Below the pieces are notes generated by a model. That model did no database searches, had not been told where the DNA came from, and was given only the letters and a program-made list of their open reading frames with translations. This document shows positions 11,981 through 45,942 of a stretch of DNA of 64,000 nt, piece after piece; the first letter of the stretch is position 1, and each line of letters begins with the position of its first letter. The stretch covers positions 96,470-160,469 of the forward strand of contig CAYYLC010000002.1 of NCBI GenBank assembly GCA_964472415.1, read 5' to 3'. Origin of the DNA: an uncultured Gammaproteobacteria bacterium (GTDB taxonomy: Bacteria; Patescibacteriota; Microgenomatia; Levybacterales; GWA1-39-11). The translations under genes were made by a program, and so were the position numbers.

Positions 11981-12052
11981 GCGTCTGTAGCTCAGGGGTA
12001 GAGCGCCATTCTTATAAAATGGATGTCCTTGGTTCGAATCCAAGCAGACGCA
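11981..12052 (+). tRNA. tRNA-Ile (anticodon UAU)
   Basis: Acceptor GCGTCTG/CAGACGC, D arm TAGCTCAGGGGTAGAGC, anticodon stem CCATT/AATGG with loop CTTATAA (34-36 = TAT), T arm CTTGG-TTCGAAT-CCAAG. Confidence 0.7.
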
Positions 12053-12137
12053 CTTGTGAAACTTGGATACAGTAGGCTTCGAGGGTGACAGATTCAAAGG
12101 TCCACTCTGTTTTTATTCACCTGATATAATCAAGACT

Positions 12138-31758: not shown

Positions 31759-31798
31759 TTTCTTGACTTTATAGCAACTCCCCTCATATCATAAATAT

Positions 31799-33268
31799 AT
31801 GAAACGATTCCTCGCACTACTGGGTGGATTTTTATTTTCCTTTACACTCTGTGTCGCATTTCTTCCTCCTCAAAGCTCCGAAGCGCAACAAGAACCAATC
31901 TCCCCAGAGACGTCAGAAAATACTGAGACATCAGAAGACACACCTACCACAAACTGTGGTGGTGAAAACTGGACTATTGACCCCTGCCCACTAGAAATTG
32001 ACGGAAATACAGAGAAAGTTACGATCAAATTTTTTGGTCTTGATGAAGACGTAGACTGGCGCACCTGCTCTATCCGAAAAGGGTGCGATTTGGCACGAGA
32101 CAAAGCAAAAGAAATAGGGGCATTTGAAAATGGAGTTTTGACCATTGTAGTCTGTGGCGCAAACGAAGGAAAACTAAAAGAAGTAGGGGATGAGGGATGT
32201 GGCGATGATGACTACTTTCACGAAGGACGCGTGTATCAGATGGCGCTCTTTGAAGATGAAGAGCAAGAGATAAAAGGACCCATTGCTTCATTTTTTGTAA
32301 ATCACTATTACCCCAAAATAGCCGTTAACAACGGCGCAAGTAGCAATGGCATCCTAGAAGGAGCAAATAGTTTTCTCGAGGTAAAAGTGTTTGGAGACTT
32401 ACGCCGAGGCGGCGGCAATCGCAATAACTATCAAATAGTCGTTGAAGGAAAGGATAACTATGGAAACACCTACAAGCAAGATGAATGCATAGAGGTTAAA
32501 AGTACAGAGGGCAATTCAGCATTTTTTTCCAGGAATCAAGATAAGGAGGGCGAAACTGGAAGATCCCTCAATAAAGGAAAATACGTTATAAAAGTAAATG
32601 AACAGGTCAATGAAGGCACACTCGGCAAGCTCAAGACACTGGCAGACAAGTGTAACGGTGGCTTCACCTACTGGCATATCAACATCGAAATTGATGAAGT
32701 CGGAAATATCATCGGCACCCCCCCCTTCTGCTCCCCAAGCGAAACCACTGGTATATCAATTGATAATGATGTATGCATTCAAGATCCAAATATAAGCGAC
32801 GTTGGAAAATATAAAGATTTTATCGATTCGCTCTTTGAAGGCAGTGAAGTTCCGCTTCCGTGCGCTGACACTCCAGAGAATGTAGCAGGCAAGGGATTTT
32901 GTGGCATGGTAGATACCGCAATCGGCACCATCCCCACAAATTTCCAGGGCTTTGTAAATAGACTCTTTACGATCGTTCTTTCTGTCGCAGGCGTATCAGC
33001 ACTTGGCCTCATCATCTATGGCGGGTATACTTATATGACCTCTCGAGGCGACACTGAAAAAATCAAACATGGGCGAGAAATCATCACAGCTGCCATTATC
33101 GGACTCTTGTTTATCATATTTTCTTTTGTAATACTACAAGTAATAACCGGAGAGATTTTACGAATTCCAGGATTTAACAATCCAGAATATAGCCCAGAGA
33201 CTGGAGTGGATAGGGTTGATGATGGAACGGTGCCAGGAAGCGAACTGCCACCAGAACTATTTCAATAA
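31799..33268 (+). CDS. VirB2/TrbC-like pilin-domain protein with ~400-aa N-terminal extracellular extension
   Basis: Signal peptide, Cys-containing exodomain, then C-terminal two-TM module LIIYGGYTYMTSRGDTEKIKHGREIITAAIIGLLFIIF that shares the signature of the three downstream pilin-like ORFs. Confidence 0.5.
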   Translation: MKRFLALLGGFLFSFTLCVAFLPPQSSEAQQEPISPETSENTETSEDTPTTNCGGENWTIDPCPLEIDGNTEKVTIKFFGLDEDVDWRTCSIRKGCDLARDKAKEIGAFENGVLTIVVCGANEGKLKEVGDEGCGDDDYFHEGRVYQMALFEDEEQEIKGPIASFFVNHYYPKIAVNNGASSNGILEGANSFLEVKVFGDLRRGGGNRNNYQIVVEGKDNYGNTYKQDECIEVKSTEGNSAFFSRNQDKEGETGRSLNKGKYVIKVNEQVNEGTLGKLKTLADKCNGGFTYWHINIEIDEVGNIIGTPPFCSPSETTGISIDNDVCIQDPNISDVGKYKDFIDSLFEGSEVPLPCADTPENVAGKGFCGMVDTAIGTIPTNFQGFVNRLFTIVLSVAGVSALGLIIYGGYTYMTSRGDTEKIKHGREIITAAIIGLLFIIFSFVILQVITGEILRIPGFNNPEYSPETGVDRVDDGTVPGSELPPELFQ

Positions 33269-33270
33269 TT

Positions 33271-33603
33271 ATGCAAGAATATATAGCACAACTGAGAGTT
33301 CCGGGAGCCAACGGAACTCCAATCGAGATACGACCACCAGAAAATGTCCCTCAAGGAGGAGAAGGAATGTTAGAAAAGATTCTCTCACTCGGTATCCAGG
33401 TCTTTCTCATAGTGGTAATCATCGCAGCACTCTTCTATCTCGTATGGGCCGGCATCAGATGGGCGCAGTCAGGAGGAGATTCTTCAAAGCTTCAGGCAGC
33501 ACGGCAACAAATCGTATTTGCAATTATCGGAATCGTTGTTGCATTTCTTGGATTTGCCATCATAACATTCATGGGTGGAATTTTCGGCGTAAGCCTTCTA
33601 TAA
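33271..33603 (+). CDS. T4SS pilin-like protein (VirB2/TrbC-like family)
   Basis: TM1 - WAGIRWAQSGGDSSKLQAARQQIVFAIIGIVVAFLGF - TM2. Paralogous motif x-[ST]-[SQ]-GGD-x-x-K-x-x-x-A[RK]-x-x-I-x-x-A-I-[IV]-G. Confidence 0.55.
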   Translation: MQEYIAQLRVPGANGTPIEIRPPENVPQGGEGMLEKILSLGIQVFLIVVIIAALFYLVWAGIRWAQSGGDSSKLQAARQQIVFAIIGIVVAFLGFAIITFMGGIFGVSLL

Positions 33604-33612
33604 AACTCCTTA

Positions 33613-34131
33613 TTGACAAGAATTATGAAAGCTGTAACAATAGTTAAAAGCATTATGAAAAGACTAGTTGCCCTTCTCGCTGCACCGCTTACACTTATTG
33701 CCCCTCAACTTGTCTATGCGCAAGAAAGTGATCTGGATCTTTGTCCTGAAACTCAATTTAACATCCTTTGCAAAATCGAAACAGGAGATTTTGGTGGAAT
33801 CCTCGGAACCGCAATTGTAATTATGTTTATCGTTGCAATCATCATCGCGCTCCTCTGGCTTATATTAGGAGGCATTAAGTGGATCACTTCTGGAGGAGAC
33901 TCTAGTAAAGTAGAAGGCGCACGAAATCAGATCATCGCAGCAGTTATCGGGCTCGTCGTTGTGTTTCTTTCGTACTTTATCCTGAATTTCGTGTTAACAC
34001 TCTTTGGGATCCCTGGGGTAGGCGGCTTAAAAATCCCAACAATTAAGCCGATTGTTGAGGGAAGTAGCGCAGGAGGTTCAGTTAATGATGGCATTGATAC
34101 TATAAGAGATCGAGTTGAAAATCAACGGTAA
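33613..34131 (+). CDS. T4SS pilin-like protein (VirB2/TrbC-like family), paralog
   Basis: Signal peptide, then ILGGIKWITSGGDSSKVEGARNQIIAAVIGLVVVFL. Confidence 0.55.
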   Translation: MTRIMKAVTIVKSIMKRLVALLAAPLTLIAPQLVYAQESDLDLCPETQFNILCKIETGDFGGILGTAIVIMFIVAIIIALLWLILGGIKWITSGGDSSKVEGARNQIIAAVIGLVVVFLSYFILNFVLTLFGIPGVGGLKIPTIKPIVEGSSAGGSVNDGIDTIRDRVENQR

Positions 34132-34152
34132 TAAAACCATCTCCTCAAAATT

Positions 34153-34455
34153 ATGCCTTGGGACTCATGTATAGATCCATCCACCGGAATAGCGACTCTT
34201 CGCTGCATTCCAGTTGTTATAAAAAACCTCGTAAACTGGGCGCTCATTTTTGCGGGAGTTGTCGCACTCTTTCTCATCGTCTACGCAGGATTTAAATTCG
34301 TAACCAGTCAAGGAGACTCCACACAGGTAGACAGTGCAAAAAAAACGCTTACCTATGCAATCGTCGGACTACTTCTGATCCTACTCTCTTTCGCAATTCT
34401 AAACCTAATAGCAGGCCTTACTGGAGTGGATCAAATCACAAACCCTGCATTCTAA
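34153..34455 (+). CDS. T4SS pilin-like protein (VirB2/TrbC-like family), paralog
   Basis: YAGFKFVTSQGDSTQVDSAKKTLTYAIVGLLLILL. Confidence 0.55.
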   Translation: MPWDSCIDPSTGIATLRCIPVVIKNLVNWALIFAGVVALFLIVYAGFKFVTSQGDSTQVDSAKKTLTYAIVGLLLILLSFAILNLIAGLTGVDQITNPAF

Positions 34456-34498
34456 ACTCATTGACAAAATAACATCTTCTAGTATATTCTCTTATAGT

Positions 34499-34807
34499 AT
34501 GGATACGACAGCTCAAATCCCTGAACAGGAAAAAAATGCGCTTTATAAAAAAATCGCTGATATCATGCTCACAGAATTAAAGACTGGTTCACTCTCCTCT
34601 GAAGATGTAGAGGACATTTCCTTCTTTACGCTTGAAAACCTAGATAACGCCACAAATTCGAGCTATCTTGAGGCATTCACCGAAGAACTGGCCAAGCGTT
34701 GGCCCAGCTTTACCCCACTCGCACACCCTATTAAACAGCAGGAATCGATTCAAAAAGATCAAAAAAATATCGAGGCAATAACTAGCGAAATAAAAAACTT
34801 ATCATAA
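34499..34807 (+). CDS. Small acidic hypothetical protein
   Basis: 102-aa ORF, stop 1 nt before the next CDS (coupled). Confidence 0.4.
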   Translation: MDTTAQIPEQEKNALYKKIADIMLTELKTGSLSSEDVEDISFFTLENLDNATNSSYLEAFTEELAKRWPSFTPLAHPIKQQESIQKDQKNIEAITSEIKNLS

Positions 34808-34808
34808 C

Positions 34809-36851
34809 ATGCCGGACGCACCAGCAGAAATACAACCAACAGACATACTTCTTGACAGAGAACATGATGCAACACTCAGTATTCAGATGGGAGGCAACAA
34901 CGCACAAAGGGAAATGGAGGCTGCAAACGCTAGATCAACTCGAATTAATGAAATTGTCCAGAATAACCCCGACAACCTCCGCGCAGTATTTGTATCAGAA
35001 TCCAGTCCGCCGGATTATACGGAAGCGGATTTCGACGCTACCATTGGAAAGCTTAAATCCACCGAAGGAAACGCTAACACTGATTCCCGCATCAAAACAT
35101 TAGAAGAGGACATAGAACCACTCGCCGCCTATCTTGAGGCAGTACGGAAATCAAAACTTGAAGGAATTACCCTCGATAAGGCTCTAGGCTCTGATGCAGA
35201 AACTACAAAAAGCAAGGTGGCAGCAACGCTTATACACCGCGGGAGGCTCTTGGAAAAATTTCCAGAGATCGCTGAGGCATACCGCAATGAAGTTGATCGG
35301 CTCAAGTTTGTCGAGCAGCTTATCGCACGAGACCCTCGCTTTGTGAGTGAAATGGCACGAGAGCTTTCAGAAATCCGGGACGAAGCGAAGGAACTAGACG
35401 AAACTACATCTGATCCCAAAAGGCTTTCAGAGCAAAAAACTACGCTCGACGAACTTCAAACGTCTCTGGTAACACAAATTCAGAAAACACTCGAGGATCA
35501 CGGGCTCGATCAAGCCGGACAAGAAGAAATCAAGAATCTAATTGAAATGGGCATGGACCCTCAATCGATTATCGAAATGGCAAAAGTTAACTTAAAACTT
35601 GATCCGACCTTTGAAAGGTATAGCGATCTTAAGGAAGCTTATGACGTGCAGAGAATTGAAAAAGAAACCTATGAGAAGTTAATTGCGGATGAAAAGGCAA
35701 ATACTGACTCAAAGGGCAAGCCAAAAAGGCCTGATGAGATTAAAAGACTTCAGGATCTTCTAATACAGGCAAACGGTCGCATGGAAACAGTACGCAATCA
35801 CATGATGGCTGAGCAGAATGCCTATACATTAAGAACAGAAACTACCAAAGAGGACTTTGAAGGCAAATACCAAAAGCACTTAATAAAAGCCTCCCTCTTA
35901 AGAGAAAATGGCCCTCTTGCAAAACTTATAGAAGCTTCCACAAAAAATCAGTCCAAAATAACAGAACTGGGGTCTCAAATTGAACAAGCTAAATCTAACC
36001 CTGAGAAAGAAGACGCAGAAAAAAAGAAGGCGGAACTTATTAGGCGCCTAGAAGCATCTGTTGACAAAGCCATGGCACAATTTCTCACAAAAAAATACGA
36101 CGACTACCTCTCTCGTCAAAATATCATGGTAGATGCGGCCATAAAAGAGGCTGAGAAAGACAATGAACCCAACATGGCAAACATGACAAGACGACTGCAG
36201 GAAAGTATGGATATATGGAGTCATTTTGATACAGGGACGAGAAAGATAGTCCGCAACCGCACACAGCTTGGCACAGACATAAAAAACCTTGTCACATATG
36301 CCTCCGAAGGACCAGACGGCATACGACGTATGATCGCGGAAAAGGTTGAATTCAAAGAAGACAAAGGCGAACTAAACGATCATCTCGCTGGAGAGTTTGG
36401 CGGAGAGGGCGCCACATACGACTCGCTTTCAGCGTTTGACAAAGCGAAAGTAGATTCTCTAGCTGTTCAGAGGCGAAACGAGTTTGATAGACTCGTTACT
36501 GAACAAGGGGACGCATTTACAAAACGTTTGCTTGCAGAATATGCAGCAAACAGAGGTGTTATAGACAAGCTGACTGAAGTGGGATATCTCTCATTAAATA
36601 ATGACGAAATCAATATACTTAATTCTCAATTCGGACCTCTCATGGACCAAGAACTCTCCCGTACGGGCATTCTTGCAATGCTCAAAGAAAAAGGCATTAA
36701 CATGGGCCCTAAAACAAGACTAACCCTATTCCTCCTCATACTTCTCGGCGGAGCTGCGGCAATTAGCGCGATCGGGGTCGCACCGGCAGCTGTTATGGCT
36801 GGACAAGCAGCAAAAGAAGTAGGAACTGCAACCTGGAAAGGCTGGGCATAA
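34809..36851 (+). CDS. Coiled-coil protein with C-terminal membrane anchor
   Basis: 680 aa, highly charged heptad-rich sequence, single C-terminal TM LTLFLLILLGGAAAISAIGVAPAAV. Confidence 0.5.
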   Translation: MPDAPAEIQPTDILLDREHDATLSIQMGGNNAQREMEAANARSTRINEIVQNNPDNLRAVFVSESSPPDYTEADFDATIGKLKSTEGNANTDSRIKTLEEDIEPLAAYLEAVRKSKLEGITLDKALGSDAETTKSKVAATLIHRGRLLEKFPEIAEAYRNEVDRLKFVEQLIARDPRFVSEMARELSEIRDEAKELDETTSDPKRLSEQKTTLDELQTSLVTQIQKTLEDHGLDQAGQEEIKNLIEMGMDPQSIIEMAKVNLKLDPTFERYSDLKEAYDVQRIEKETYEKLIADEKANTDSKGKPKRPDEIKRLQDLLIQANGRMETVRNHMMAEQNAYTLRTETTKEDFEGKYQKHLIKASLLRENGPLAKLIEASTKNQSKITELGSQIEQAKSNPEKEDAEKKKAELIRRLEASVDKAMAQFLTKKYDDYLSRQNIMVDAAIKEAEKDNEPNMANMTRRLQESMDIWSHFDTGTRKIVRNRTQLGTDIKNLVTYASEGPDGIRRMIAEKVEFKEDKGELNDHLAGEFGGEGATYDSLSAFDKAKVDSLAVQRRNEFDRLVTEQGDAFTKRLLAEYAANRGVIDKLTEVGYLSLNNDEINILNSQFGPLMDQELSRTGILAMLKEKGINMGPKTRLTLFLLILLGGAAAISAIGVAPAAVMAGQAAKEVGTATWKGWA

Positions 36852-44133: not shown

Positions 44134-44851
44134 TTACAACACAAACGAAAGTCCGAGTTTTATCCGAAGGAATCTTCCTTTTATTTTAGTTGGAGCGCTG
44201 TTGTTACTTATCGCCACTGTCTTTCTTGTCTTAACGTTTTTTGCAAAAAATACTACAGACCCTCACCCTCACACACCTGATAATATTAATACTACTCCTA
44301 CTGCAGTGCAGCCCATAAACTTCTCTATAACTAACACGTCACCAGCAGACAACGAATCAGATGTTTATCCGGGAGAAATATCCATAACATTTACCACAAA
44401 CACTCCCCTTCTCTCTCAAGAAGATTACTTATTTCGCATGACTCCATCCCCAGAAGAAACCCCTATTATTCAAAACGAATTCCCCTCGCAAGAGATATCC
44501 TATGGAATTGTGGGAAATCTTTCCCCCGACACAACATATACCGTAGGTATTTATAATACTTCAAGCCTTCTGGTCCACTCCTGGTCATTTACCACATCAA
44601 GTGAGACGCCAGAGTCATCCTCTCGCGCAGTAAAGCTTGAACAAGAGAACGCAATAAGAAATTTTTATCCACTATTCTATGACCTTCCCTACGAAACAGA
44701 TACATTTAAAATCGACTATACTGACAGGCTTACATTAGAGGTTATTATGTATTCTGGAAACCAAACAAACACAGCACCTGCAATAGAATCCTGGATACAA
44801 GACCGCGGCGTAGATCCTGCAACCCACACGATAAACTATATTCAAAACTAA
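44105..44851 (+). CDS. Bitopic membrane hypothetical protein
   Basis: One N-terminal TM (LPFILVGALLLLIATVFLVLTFF), Thr/Pro-rich exodomain. Confidence 0.4.
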   Translation: MDTHFSDNNNYNTNESPSFIRRNLPFILVGALLLLIATVFLVLTFFAKNTTDPHPHTPDNINTTPTAVQPINFSITNTSPADNESDVYPGEISITFTTNTPLLSQEDYLFRMTPSPEETPIIQNEFPSQEISYGIVGNLSPDTTYTVGIYNTSSLLVHSWSFTTSSETPESSSRAVKLEQENAIRNFYPLFYDLPYETDTFKIDYTDRLTLEVIMYSGNQTNTAPAIESWIQDRGVDPATHTINYIQN

Positions 44852-45942
44852 TCCGTTCGGATTGGCATGATTACATGCTGAAATGAAGACGTATTATCTG
44901 AAAAGAGTGCTGGCTGCATCGGACTTTTTAACCTCATCGTTACTCGATCACCTTCAAAATTCCGCAACACATCCATTAAATACCGAATATTAAATGCGAT
45001 AGCATTATCCTCTCCCTCTTTTTCACAATCTAATAAAAACTCTCCTTCTCCAACCCCAGAAGCTTTCGAAACCAGCTTCATCTCGGAGCCGGAAACAGTA
45101 ATATTCACAATATTTGATTGATCTTTTGCAAACACACTTGCAAGCTTCACTTCTTGAATAAATGCCTCCTTATCAACTACTACTGATGTTATCGTGTCTT
45201 GTGGAACAACTTTCTCATACGGTGGAAATCTCCCCTCGATAATCCTCCCCACTAAAATAACATCACCACCTTCAAATAACACTTGATTTTCCTCGTCATT
45301 CACATACATATCGATCGTGTCTGACTTAATATTCATTGCTTCAGTAATAACCTGAATCGAGATAATGATTGGTTCCGTTATTTTTGCCACAGCAGAATCG
45401 GCAATTGTCTTTATCGTAAGTCTATATCCATCAGTTGTAACCAGATCCACACCACTCTCTTTTTTCACTACGTATACGCCCGTTAAATGGGGCCTCACGT
45501 CGTCTGATGACGCAGAGAAGGATAGATGATCAAAGAGACTATCAAACTCCTCCTTTTTTAAAGAAATTATCTTCTCACCCTTTGACTTCATAAGCTCAGG
45601 GAACTCTAAAGCACTAAGCGTCTGGAACGACATCTTGCTTCCCCGAATCGAAAACCTGAGCGTTTGTTTGTCTTCAAAAATACGCAGCTTGTCTTTTGGG
45701 AGACTATTCACTACTTCTATAAATTGCTTTCCAGGAATGCTCACACTTCCCTCTTTATCTATCTTTGCTGGGATTTTAAAAATTACCCCCATTTCAAGAT
45801 CTGTTGCTTTTATAAAAAATCCATTGTTATTTGCAACAAATAAAACGTTATTTAGTATTGGCACCTGAGAATTAGTTGGGAGAATTCTAGAAAGAATTGG
45901 TAAATAGCGTTCTATATTTTCTGTTAAAAGTTCTACTTCCAT
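44848..45942 (-). CDS. dnaN: DNA polymerase III beta sliding clamp
   Basis: 364 aa, three-domain beta-clamp pattern. Immediately downstream of dnaA. Confidence 0.85.
   Translation of the reverse strand: MEVELLTENIERYLPILSRILPTNSQVPILNNVLFVANNNGFFIKATDLEMGVIFKIPAKIDKEGSVSIPGKQFIEVVNSLPKDKLRIFEDKQTLRFSIRGSKMSFQTLSALEFPELMKSKGEKIISLKKEEFDSLFDHLSFSASSDDVRPHLTGVYVVKKESGVDLVTTDGYRLTIKTIADSAVAKITEPIIISIQVITEAMNIKSDTIDMYVNDEENQVLFEGGDVILVGRIIEGRFPPYEKVVPQDTITSVVVDKEAFIQEVKLASVFAKDQSNIVNITVSGSEMKLVSKASGVGEGEFLLDCEKEGEDNAIAFNIRYLMDVLRNFEGDRVTMRLKSPMQPALFSDNTSSFQHVIMPIRTD

Follow-up and report, generated by a model that had tools for sequence, protein, structure and literature searches.

A pilin array whose first member carries a hypervariable secreted domain, in the type IV secretion cluster of a Levybacteria-like patescibacterium

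The window analysed here is a 64,000-nt stretch of DNA (contig CAYYLC010000002.1 of assembly GCA_964472415.1, positions 96,470 to 160,469), deposited as an uncultured Gammaproteobacteria bacterium and placed by GTDB in the Levybacterales of the Patescibacteriota. Between positions 31799 and 34455 of its + strand lies an array of four open reading frames (ORFs) that encode pilin-like proteins of 489, 110, 172 and 100 amino acids (aa), referred to below as pilins 1 to 4. The four modules that give these proteins their name are homologous, and the first of them is joined to a large secreted domain, here called the exodomain, in a fusion that is genuine and conserved among related genomes. This exodomain is hypervariable, the hypervariability is confined to it, and the sequences on either side are conserved. 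We place high confidence in these observations on homology, fusion and variability, and in the association of the array with a type IV secretion system. Pilin arrays beside virB4 are already known from Patescibacteria (PMC12102498, PMC10633639); what is new is the exodomain-bearing, cassette-like first pilin and the fixed set of four subunits to which it belongs.

Structure and occurrence of the fused pilin

From its N-terminus onwards, pilin 1 comprises a signal peptide, the exodomain, a neck, a pilin hairpin and a C-terminal tail, whose limits are listed in Table 1. The 381 residues ahead of the first transmembrane segment divide into a signal peptide of about 29 residues, an acidic disordered linker of about 20, some 300 aa of folded sequence and a neck of 28 aa. 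An earlier note on this DNA, made from the letters alone, had described an exodomain of about 400 aa, which was right as to a large domain and too generous as to its size. The cleavage site of the signal peptide was read by eye, with no SignalP result behind it. In the AlphaFold2 (AF2) model, which has a mean predicted local distance difference test (pLDDT) score of 76.8 and reaches about 90 over most of residues 58-300, a signal-peptide helix (2-21) and the disordered acidic linker (approximately 24-49) are followed by two beta-sandwiches (approximately 55-170 and 172-300), a helix (333-346), the cysteine-loop neck (354-381), the two helices of the hairpin (382-414 and 419-454) and a disordered tail with a pLDDT below 50. 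The hydrophobic segments of the hairpin span residues 389-407 and 428-446, and the match to the Pfam family PF18895 (T4SS_pilin) extends from 382 to 449.

Structural comparison of the exodomain with the PDB by Foldseek returned tandem FN3 or cytokine-receptor-type domains (best E 6e-5, with low TM-scores), which amounts to a generic fold assignment. The model of the whole protein gave only generic FN3 and tail-protein matches among viral structures (E > 1e-3), and a sequence search of the PDB with all 489 residues gave nothing relevant. Of the 13 cysteines of the protein, 8 are invariant in an alignment of 33 full-length proteins, in which the whole hairpin is also invariant or near-invariant; the invariant or near-invariant cysteines are C90, C96, C119, C134, C230, C285, C355 and C368, and six of the eight invariant ones lie in the exodomain. 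The neck is conserved in every first pilin regardless of the type of exodomain that precedes it (P354, C355, C368, T373 and G376 are invariant or nearly so in 57 proteins), and a C-x(10-12)-C loop immediately before helix 1 is common to the first, third and fourth pilins. The tail motif given in Table 1 is present in only a subset of the homologues of pilin 1 and could be a processing or interaction signal. A sortase signal was considered for this tail and rejected, as there is no LPxTG consensus among the homologues and no hydrophobic segment follows. The long tail of the 172-aa pilin contains a loosely similar stretch, G-I-D-T-I-R-D-R-V.

That the fusion could derive from sequencing, a possibility which the earlier note had raised against itself, is contradicted by the recurrence of the identical 489-aa protein on contigs from SRR8449813, ERZ27247376 and SRR6484323. 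A database search with pilin 1 retrieved about 32 full-length homologues (31-51% identity), nearly all with a C-terminal PF18895 module, together with about 35 proteins of 270-550 aa that share the C-terminal module alone. When residues 50-354 only were scanned against 1.84 billion representative proteins, 106 matches were obtained; among the 94 exodomain relatives newly returned in this way, 89 bear the pilin module, four are short proteins of 194-293 aa that terminate within the exodomain, and one is a weak match to a protein of 2556 aa. The type of exodomain found in the window therefore occurs essentially only as a pilin fusion, and the claim of the note that one module is fused behind a large, secreted, cysteine-containing domain is confirmed. 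The fusion is indeed unusual when set against textbook VirB2 and those pilins of Saccharibacteria that have been studied; within its own lineage, by contrast, fusion is the rule, with a median N-terminal tail of 341 aa at the first position (50 loci).

The metagenome-assembled genomes (MAGs) that contain relatives of pilin 1 are assigned to Candidatus Levybacteria, Microgenomates, Daviesbacteria, Gottesmanbacteria and Pacebacteria, and a tblastn search with the 100-aa pilin against 72,556 plasmids gave no match. Many MAG records with the locus are titled 'uncultured Gammaproteobacteria bacterium' (L004, L011-L013 and others), and titles naming Lysobacterales, Limnocylindrales and Nitrospirota also occur; since the gene order in these records equals that of the Levybacteria records, such titles look like placeholder or mis-binned labels.

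Variability of the exodomain

For comparison among genomes, a hidden Markov model of the pilin module was built and 80 related loci, all retrieved via the hairpin of the first position, were scanned with it. The 80 exodomains at position 1 fall into 37 BLAST clusters, that of the window having 26 members. Pfam searches with 57 position-1 proteins revealed little besides the pilin module, the exceptions being single weak matches, for instance to an EGF-like domain, and a PG_binding_1 domain in two exodomains of other genomes (E 1.2e-15).

The contrast between the exodomain and its surroundings is most evident in a comparison of loci L070 and L080, where the regulator upstream of the array is 97.5% identical, the neighbouring 711-aa membrane protein g711 is 95.3% identical and the hairpin plus neck is 97.4% identical, whereas the exodomains share only 24.8% identity. 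In the closely related pairs that were aligned, L070 and L076 each against L080, the breakpoint is sharp, and identity becomes high a little ahead of the cysteine loop; in L070 it does so 8 residues before the loop cysteine. Tandem position-1 genes are present in L049, L058, L070 and L074. The hairpins of such a pair are 90-100% identical, whereas similarity between the exodomains is limited to a short stretch at most, in three of these four genomes the signal peptide. Such pairs suggest duplication accompanied by cassette replacement or by gene conversion of the anchor. Taken as a whole, these comparisons of sequence show the exodomain to be a cassette that is exchangeable or evolves fast, while its anchor stays constant.

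Four related modules in a fixed order

All four pilins have two strongly hydrophobic segments towards the C-terminal side, with a short polar turn between them. PF18895 covers this predicted hairpin in each case, scoring 28.5 bits in the 489-aa protein, 29.5 in the 172-aa protein and 38.5 in the 100-aa protein, all above the gathering score of 26.6 bits, and 23.5 bits (E 6e-5) in the 110-aa protein, just under it; the latter nevertheless aligns with the other three modules with pairwise z-scores of 11.8-24.1. The same family is matched by 56 of the 57 position-1 orthologues and by all 39 position-4 orthologues, and pilin 4 is the strongest match of the array to pilin models. Each of the six pairwise Smith-Waterman scores exceeds those of 500 out of 500 composition-preserving shuffles (z = 11.8-24.2), values that are somewhat generous because a global shuffle breaks the structure of the transmembrane segments. 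The four paralogous pilin-like modules of the earlier note are thus borne out. Ten columns of the module alignment are invariant, including G58, S64, G66, D67, A81 and G84 in the numbering of the first row, and the conserved core is S-x-G-D ... A-x-x-G. A shared signature had been proposed in the form [WF]-x-[ST]-[SQ]-GGD; the signature exists, and its strict form does not hold, as the turn is Y-M-T-S-R-G-D in pilin 1 and F-V-T-S-Q-G-D in pilin 4.

Among NCBIfam models, NF045849 matches the four modules with E-values from 1e-8 to 4e-4 (1.4e-7 for pilin 1, 1.4e-4 for pilin 2 and 1.1e-8 for pilin 4) and with scores of 31.1-34.7 bits (pilins 1 and 4) or 19.9-21.5 bits (pilins 2 and 3), all below its cut-off of 40 bits, and the four proteins are best regarded as relatives of this family, not as members. 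The AF2 model of pilin 4, for which an alignment of the window paralogues and database hits served as input, predicts a helical hairpin (19-51 and 56-90; pLDDT 81), and C6 and C18 of this protein are invariant among 39 orthologues. For pilin 3, an ATG at 33625 (the public gene call, giving 168 aa) or at 33655 is a likelier start than the TTG. The genes of the array are separated by 2-43 nt. No repeats at the DNA level were found between the paralogues, and no template repeat of the kind seen in diversity-generating retroelements was found either.

Most of the 80 loci present the same order and the same neighbours: a position-1 protein of 130-650 aa with the module at its extreme C-terminus, followed by three shorter pilins with approximate lengths of 110, 135-155 and 100-110 aa. 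Where a locus has exactly four pilin ORFs, as 50 of them do, the best match of a pilin in another genome occupies the same place in the array 195 times out of 200 (47 of 50 for pilin 2 and 49 of 50 for pilin 3). Identity at the same position amounts to 58, 41, 52 and 51% for positions 1 to 4, respectively, and to 32-41% across positions, so that the hairpin of position 1 is the most conserved of the four. It is also position 1 that nearly always bears a signal peptide and a cysteine-rich exodomain. Because best matches keep to the same position and repeats at the DNA level are absent, the four pilins are ancient, non-redundant and subfunctionalised types of subunit in a fixed order, and not recent copies.

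Predicted membrane topology

The distribution of signal peptides bears on how these proteins are placed in the membrane. A segment resembling a signal peptide is found in none of the 93 pilins with an N-terminal tail shorter than 45 aa and in 44 of the 49 with a tail of at least 120 aa. Such restriction to long tails is expected if the N-terminus crosses the membrane, as short tails may pass unaided while long ones need Sec. Cysteine counts in the N-terminal tails are mostly even (80-100%, depending on the position). From these features of the sequences we infer that both ends of the pilins would lie outside the cell, with the S-x-G-D ... A-[RK] turn in the cytoplasm.

Genomic setting of the array

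The array is embedded in a cluster with genes of a type IV secretion system (T4SS), whose coordinates are given in Table 1. Those by which the T4SS of Patescibacteria is recognised are present, namely VirB4, TrsD and PrgI/VirB3 with pilin genes nearby, at a chromosomal site close to dnaA. As this arrangement of genes matches that published in PMC12102498, the cluster is assigned to the class described there, and the array belongs to a chromosomal, origin-proximal, MPF-FATA-related Patescibacteria T4SS of a Levybacteria-like member of the candidate phyla radiation (CPR).

Table 1. Positions of the pilin array, of the parts of pilin 1 and of neighbouring features in the window
Feature	Position	Strand	Description
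Pilin 1, 489 aa	31799..33268	+	ORF; signal peptide, exodomain, neck and pilin hairpin in one protein
Signal peptide of pilin 1, about residues 1-29	31799..31885	+	MKRFLALLGGFLFSFTLCVAFLPPQSSEA, followed by QQ after the presumed cleavage; hydrophobic segment 4-22; AF2 helix 2-21; family consensus ends in ...FAQ
Exodomain, residues 30-353	31886..32857	+	acidic disordered linker, then two predicted tandem beta-sandwich domains
Neck, residues 354-381	32858..32941	+	P-C-x12-C loop, then TAIGxIPT
Pilin hairpin of pilin 1, residues 382-454	32942..33160	+	helix 1, S-R-G-D turn (415-418), helix 2
C-terminal tail of pilin 1, residues 455-489 and stop codon	33161..33268	+	motif TG[VI]DRVDDGT.PG.E[LI]PP
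Pilin 2, 110 aa	33271..33603	+	ORF; N-terminal tail of about 36 aa, no cysteines, no signal peptide
Pilin 3, 172 aa from TTG	33613..34131	+	signal peptide, C-x10-C loop, hairpin, C-terminal tail of about 45 aa
Pilin 4, 100 aa	34153..34455	+	no signal peptide, C6-x11-C18 loop, hairpin
T4CP-like (coupling protein) ATPase, 795 aa	9497-11884	+	TrwB_AAD_bind 1.1e-8; NCBIfam TraD/VirD4-like matches
g711, polytopic membrane protein, 711 aa	24307..26442	+	about 8-10 hydrophobic segments; synteny in most loci
g1276, 1276 aa	26517-30347	-	no hydrophobic segment, no family match
Putative regulator, 439 aa	30439..31758	+	Trans_reg_C 2.2e-19, weak AAA matches; AAA/STAND-like NTPase region, then OmpR-type winged helix
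PrgI/VirB3-like protein with CarboxypepD_reg-like domain, 372 aa	36980..38098	+	PF12666 2e-6
TrsD-like protein, 210 aa	38105..38737	+	NF041427 1.1e-5, NF045975 1.1e-9; resembles the N-terminal part of VirB4
VirB4-type ATPase, 752 aa	38741..40999	+	P-loop_TraG 1.8e-36, CagE_TrbE_VirB 3.5e-3
Secreted hydrolase, 409 aa	42904..44133	+	Lipase_GDSL_2 7.7e-5, CHAP 3.3e-3, both under cut-offs; N-terminal hydrophobic segment
dnaN	44848-45942	-	adjoins the end of the T4SS cluster
dnaA	46073-47413	-	adjoins the end of the T4SS cluster

Directly upstream of pilin 1, in the window as in most related loci, stands the gene for the 439-aa putative regulator, which gave no match to a receiver domain and may act on the pilin operon as a one-component switch. 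In many related loci, g1276 and g711 adjoin the regulator and the array. These two proteins, for which sequence searches of the PDB returned nothing relevant, may be uncharacterised parts of the same system; g711, by its topology and a faint match to TrbL/VirB6 (E = 1), is a candidate VirB6-like channel subunit. The 409-aa hydrolase, in turn, is a candidate for a VirB1-type wall hydrolase. No member of the VirB5 family was matched among the window proteins scanned, nor was a relaxase family found in that scan, which covered part of the ORFs of the window. The T4CP-like gene lies about 20 kb from the pilins, beside two tRNA-Ser genes. A tRNA-Ile with anticodon TAT (UAU) was called by ARAGORN at 11981-12053 (+). 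A tRNA-Ile with this anticodon is uncommon in bacteria, where AUA is usually read by a lysidine-modified CAU tRNA.

Between pilin 4 and the PrgI-like gene (34499-36851, +), the window encodes an acidic protein of 102 aa and a protein of 680 aa, neither with a family match; the latter is, as read from its sequence, probably a coiled coil with one C-terminal hydrophobic segment. The corresponding gap is only about 100 bp in many related loci, and among loci L004-L083 it holds other genes, up to 6.5 kb, elsewhere; it is a variable insertion site within the operon.

The cumulative GC skew reaches its minimum at 44-46 kb, beside dnaN and dnaA, and a replication origin is therefore placed adjacent to the T4SS cluster. 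The T4SS genes to the left of this origin, being on the + strand, sit on the G-poor strand and, judging from the skew, would be transcribed head-on to replication. No Shine-Dalgarno motif is visible before any gene of the cluster. Two promoter-like sites are present, TTGACT-18-TATCAT at 31763-31792 (+), which ends 7 nt before the ATG of pilin 1, and TTGACA-16-TATATT at 34461-34488 (+), which ends 11 nt before the ATG of the 102-aa gene, and both would give leaderless or near-leaderless mRNAs. The number of promoter-like sites in the scan is not above that in shuffled sequences, and 24 terminator-like sites were counted against 15.5 +/- 4.0 in shuffles; neither kind of call was used to define the operon.

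Relation to known pilins and surface structures

The closest counterparts of the array are those of other Patescibacteria. Arrays of VirB2-like pilins have been reported in their chromosomal T4SSs, with Microgenomatia named as a class rich in them (Quinonero-Coronel et al. 2025, PMC12102498), and Southlakia epibionticum has an array of six pilins, SEML1_0014-0019, that is essential (Wang et al. 2023, PMC10633639; PMC12857230). With these the window shares tandem PF18895 hairpins beside PrgI/VirB3, TrsD and VirB4, a chromosomal location near dnaA (PMC12102498, PMC10633639) and the low identity among paralogues. Unlike in pilin 1, the PF18895 module of the Southlakia pilins begins by residue 115, and the genes with listed coordinates, of 381-417 nt, leave no large N-terminal domain. 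The papers searched on these arrays make no mention of exodomain fusions, of fixed orthologous positions or of exodomain hypervariability (PMC12102498, PMC10633639). The survey found no adhesins such as PrgB with the Patescibacteria T4SS (PMC12102498), and the role of the CPR T4SS has been called completely unknown (PMC11665869).

With the canonical VirB2/TrbC/TraA pilins (PF04956; T-pilus, RP4 and F), the proteins of the window have in common a small hairpin, here a predicted one, in which a short polar turn joins two helices, the neighbouring virB3 and virB4 genes and, in some, a leader. They differ in that their host is a monoderm without an outer-membrane core complex, that two of the four lack a leader, and that the folded domain of about 300 aa in pilin 1 is incompatible with head-to-tail cyclisation unless removed. 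At the sequence level, PF04956 gave no match to the window proteins at E <= 1 and only weak ones to 5 of 57 position-1 orthologues (best 1.8e-5) and 8 of 39 position-4 orthologues (best 1.7e-3). An hhalign comparison of the position-4 profile with five annotated VirB2/TrbC proteins returned a probability of 0.5%, against a VirB2 profile that is narrow (Rhizobiales, Acetobacteraceae); it was made from five database records, obtained by probing the plasmid collection with an Agrobacterium VirB2 sequence that is 99% identical to annotated virB2. A PDB sequence search with the position-4 profile gave nothing relevant, and a Foldseek comparison of the hairpin with the PDB was not significant, the conjugation pilus of Aeropyrum (8dfu) being the best pilus, in third place (E 1.8, TM 0.56/0.64). 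The term VirB2-like, used in the earlier note, is accordingly a label of architecture and context, in which it fits, and not one of demonstrated homology.

Of all NCBIfam models, the best match of all four proteins is to the pilin-like proteins of mycoplasma integrative and conjugative elements (NF045849, Mbov_0395), which come from monoderms with systems of MPF-FATA type; unlike the array of the window, the mycoplasma proteins are encoded on mobile elements that transfer DNA by conjugation. The NF045848 family (MMCAP2_0566) comprises larger proteins with a similar hairpin, in which the extra sequence follows the hairpin, whereas in pilin 1 it precedes it. The Trw T4SS of Bartonella likewise has several divergent pilin genes, with copies of trwL (VirB2) and trwJ (VirB5) that are thought to be adapted to host adhesion rather than to conjugation (PMC12857230). 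The copies in Trw arose by tandem amplification of short pilins within particular lineages, in contrast with the four ancient types described here, whose variability sits in the fused exodomain.

A distinct set of subunits, one of which carries a large distal contact domain, is also the logic of the VirB5/TraC tips of T-pili and of the minor-pilin tips of type IV pili and of type II secretion (GspK), to which the scheme proposed below may be likened. VirB5, however, is a separate helical protein and not a fusion to VirB2, and the exodomain is predicted to be a beta-sandwich; type IV pilins are unrelated to those of the window in fold and machinery. Homology of the exodomain to VirB5 was accordingly considered and rejected, as it is predicted to be all-beta, with FN3-type folds, and not a helical bundle. 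Finally, Pam pili are surface filaments of CPR bacteria (Saccharimonadia and Microgenomatia) made of Sec-exported, disulfide-containing Ig-like proteins and held by an anchor, PamR, with tandem FnIII domains and a membrane helix (Troman et al. 2026, bioRxiv 10.64898/2026.03.03.709456). Compared by description only, they consist of two-domain Ig-like pilins that donate a linker strand, are assembled by donor-strand exchange with PapD-like chaperones, are encoded in a pam operon and have no hairpin, whereas the array has both the hairpin and a T4SS cluster; the Pam paper uses none of the terms T4SS, VirB and type IV secretion (bioRxiv 10.64898/2026.03.03.709456).

Proposed role and competing explanations

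The role to which we lean, with modest confidence in the whole chain of steps, is that of a host-contact domain displayed by a T4SS pilin. VirB4, the VirB3-like protein and the candidate VirB6-like protein would assemble the hairpins into a conduit or pilus that spans the wall; pilin 1 would join this assembly via its conserved hairpin and present the exodomain at the cell surface, where it would contact the host bacterium or the host wall. With the hairpin constant and the exodomain swapped or diverging fast, the exodomain would set which partner is recognised. Its predicted tandem FN3/Ig-like fold is one that occurs in many adhesins and receptors. The earlier note had gone further and suggested an adhesin built into the pilus at its tip. 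The predicted outside topology and an exodomain that is hypervariable fit this suggestion, while the observations favour a tip no more than a shaft or the membrane itself, and a location of pilin 1 at the tip is pure inference. The crowding expected of so large a domain speaks for pilin 1 as a minor subunit and, together with the lack of a VirB5 match among the proteins scanned, makes a distal or initiating role attractive. A fuller scheme can be drawn from these elements, in which the exodomain is the host-recognition determinant of the CPR T4SS, the four subunits form a short fibre or conduit with the exodomain-bearing one at the distal end as a stand-in for VirB5 or a minor-pilin tip, and recombination at the neck swaps cassettes between lineages and between tandem copies, retargeting the epibiont to new hosts. 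This scheme is tentative, and we hold it to be possible but doubtful as a whole.

Several considerations weigh against the role in host contact. To our knowledge, no organism has been seen to form a pilus from PF18895 proteins, and 'pilin' is an annotation drawn from context and fold. The array shows little or no similarity to canonical VirB2/TrbC, and the structural matches of the hairpin lack significance. A domain of 35 kDa on every subunit would be expected to crowd a helical fibre of VirB2 type, and the exodomain would be lost if pilin 1 were cyclised or processed at its N-terminus in the way of T-pilin and TrbC. The FN3/Ig-like fold, being generic, is by itself no proof of adhesion, the divergence of the exodomains could come from relaxed constraint rather than from selection by hosts, and the rule that position 1 carries the exodomain applies to the Microgenomatia-centred set of loci surveyed here.

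The strongest competitor, although rather unlikely in our estimate, holds that pilin 1 is a membrane-anchored surface protein whose hairpin is an anchor or a part of the T4SS channel, that none of the four proteins polymerises, and that the exodomain works on the envelope of the cell that makes it, for instance by binding that cell's wall or arranging it around the machine. T4SSs of Gram-positive type are generally without pili (PMC12102498; PMC12857230), and no fibre of PF18895 proteins has been seen; the PG_binding_1 domain of two related exodomains could bind the cell's own wall, and homology of the pilins to true VirB2 is not demonstrable. Against this stands the fact that parts acting at the own envelope are usually conserved, whereas the exodomain is the most variable part of a locus that is otherwise 95-97% identical. 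The high conservation of the position-1 hairpin (58%) suggests tight packing contacts beyond mere anchoring, and a common fold and an unchanging gene order, as found for the four modules, are typical of subunits that assemble together. A different fate is proposed if the exodomain serves as an extended pro-region or as cargo, cleaved near the neck after export to leave a soluble secreted protein and a short mature pilin. VirB2, TraA and TrbC carry long leaders when first synthesised and then undergo processing, in some cases at both ends with subsequent cyclisation (T-pilin and RP4 TrbC are the textbook cases). The short pilins 3 and 4 have an N-terminus similar to the neck and cysteine loop of pilin 1, and the disordered tail with its conserved motif could be a processing signal. 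We nonetheless judge this cleavage improbable, given that no hydrophobic segment, which signal peptidase I requires, lies ahead of the neck, that no cleavage motif is conserved apart from the cysteine loop itself, and that the exodomain family is almost always fused to the hairpin, which speaks for a function linked to the anchor.

The published suggestion for Patescibacteria VirB2 arrays, by which the four genes would be interchangeable variants of one pilin serving antigenic or host-range variation, by analogy with Bartonella Trw (PMC12102498), appears a shade less probable still. It agrees with the identity of only about 32-45% among paralogues within a genome and with the extra copies seen in some loci (five to seven pilin ORFs in several, tandem position-1 genes in four), but each position is its own orthologous group, in the same order across many species-level genomes (195 of 200), the positions differ in signal peptide, cysteine loop and tail lengths, no repeat at the DNA level links the copies, and the variation sits in the position-1 exodomain and not in the set of four. 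As to an artefact, short hydrophobic hairpins do draw spurious matches, such as the weak ones to unrelated membrane families, and a frame-shift or an assembly error can fuse neighbouring ORFs; yet the polar turn motif is conserved and the module scores stand at z = 12-24, the ORF is identical in independent assemblies, 32 full-length homologues keep 8 invariant cysteines, and the AF2 model of the exodomain is confidently folded, so that this explanation is given next to no weight.

Implications

How the ultrasmall CPR bacteria, or Patescibacteria, recognise and attach to their hosts is largely unknown, and the T4SS is essential in the one species in which it has been tested. The locus described here and the roughly 80 related ones provide a candidate adhesin-type protein that may have gone unnoticed, filed as a 'pilin', with the exodomain, secreted and rich in disulfides, as the single hypervariable element in an otherwise conserved cluster. 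The fixed orthologous types of the four pilins revise the antigenic-variation suggestion published for such arrays. If the exodomain mediates contact with the host, its sequence would be a marker from which host range could be read in metagenomes, and the soluble domain could be used to fish for the hosts of uncultured lineages. It would also mean that a subunit of VirB2 type can bear a large passenger domain, which bears on how a fibre is built in cells without an outer membrane.

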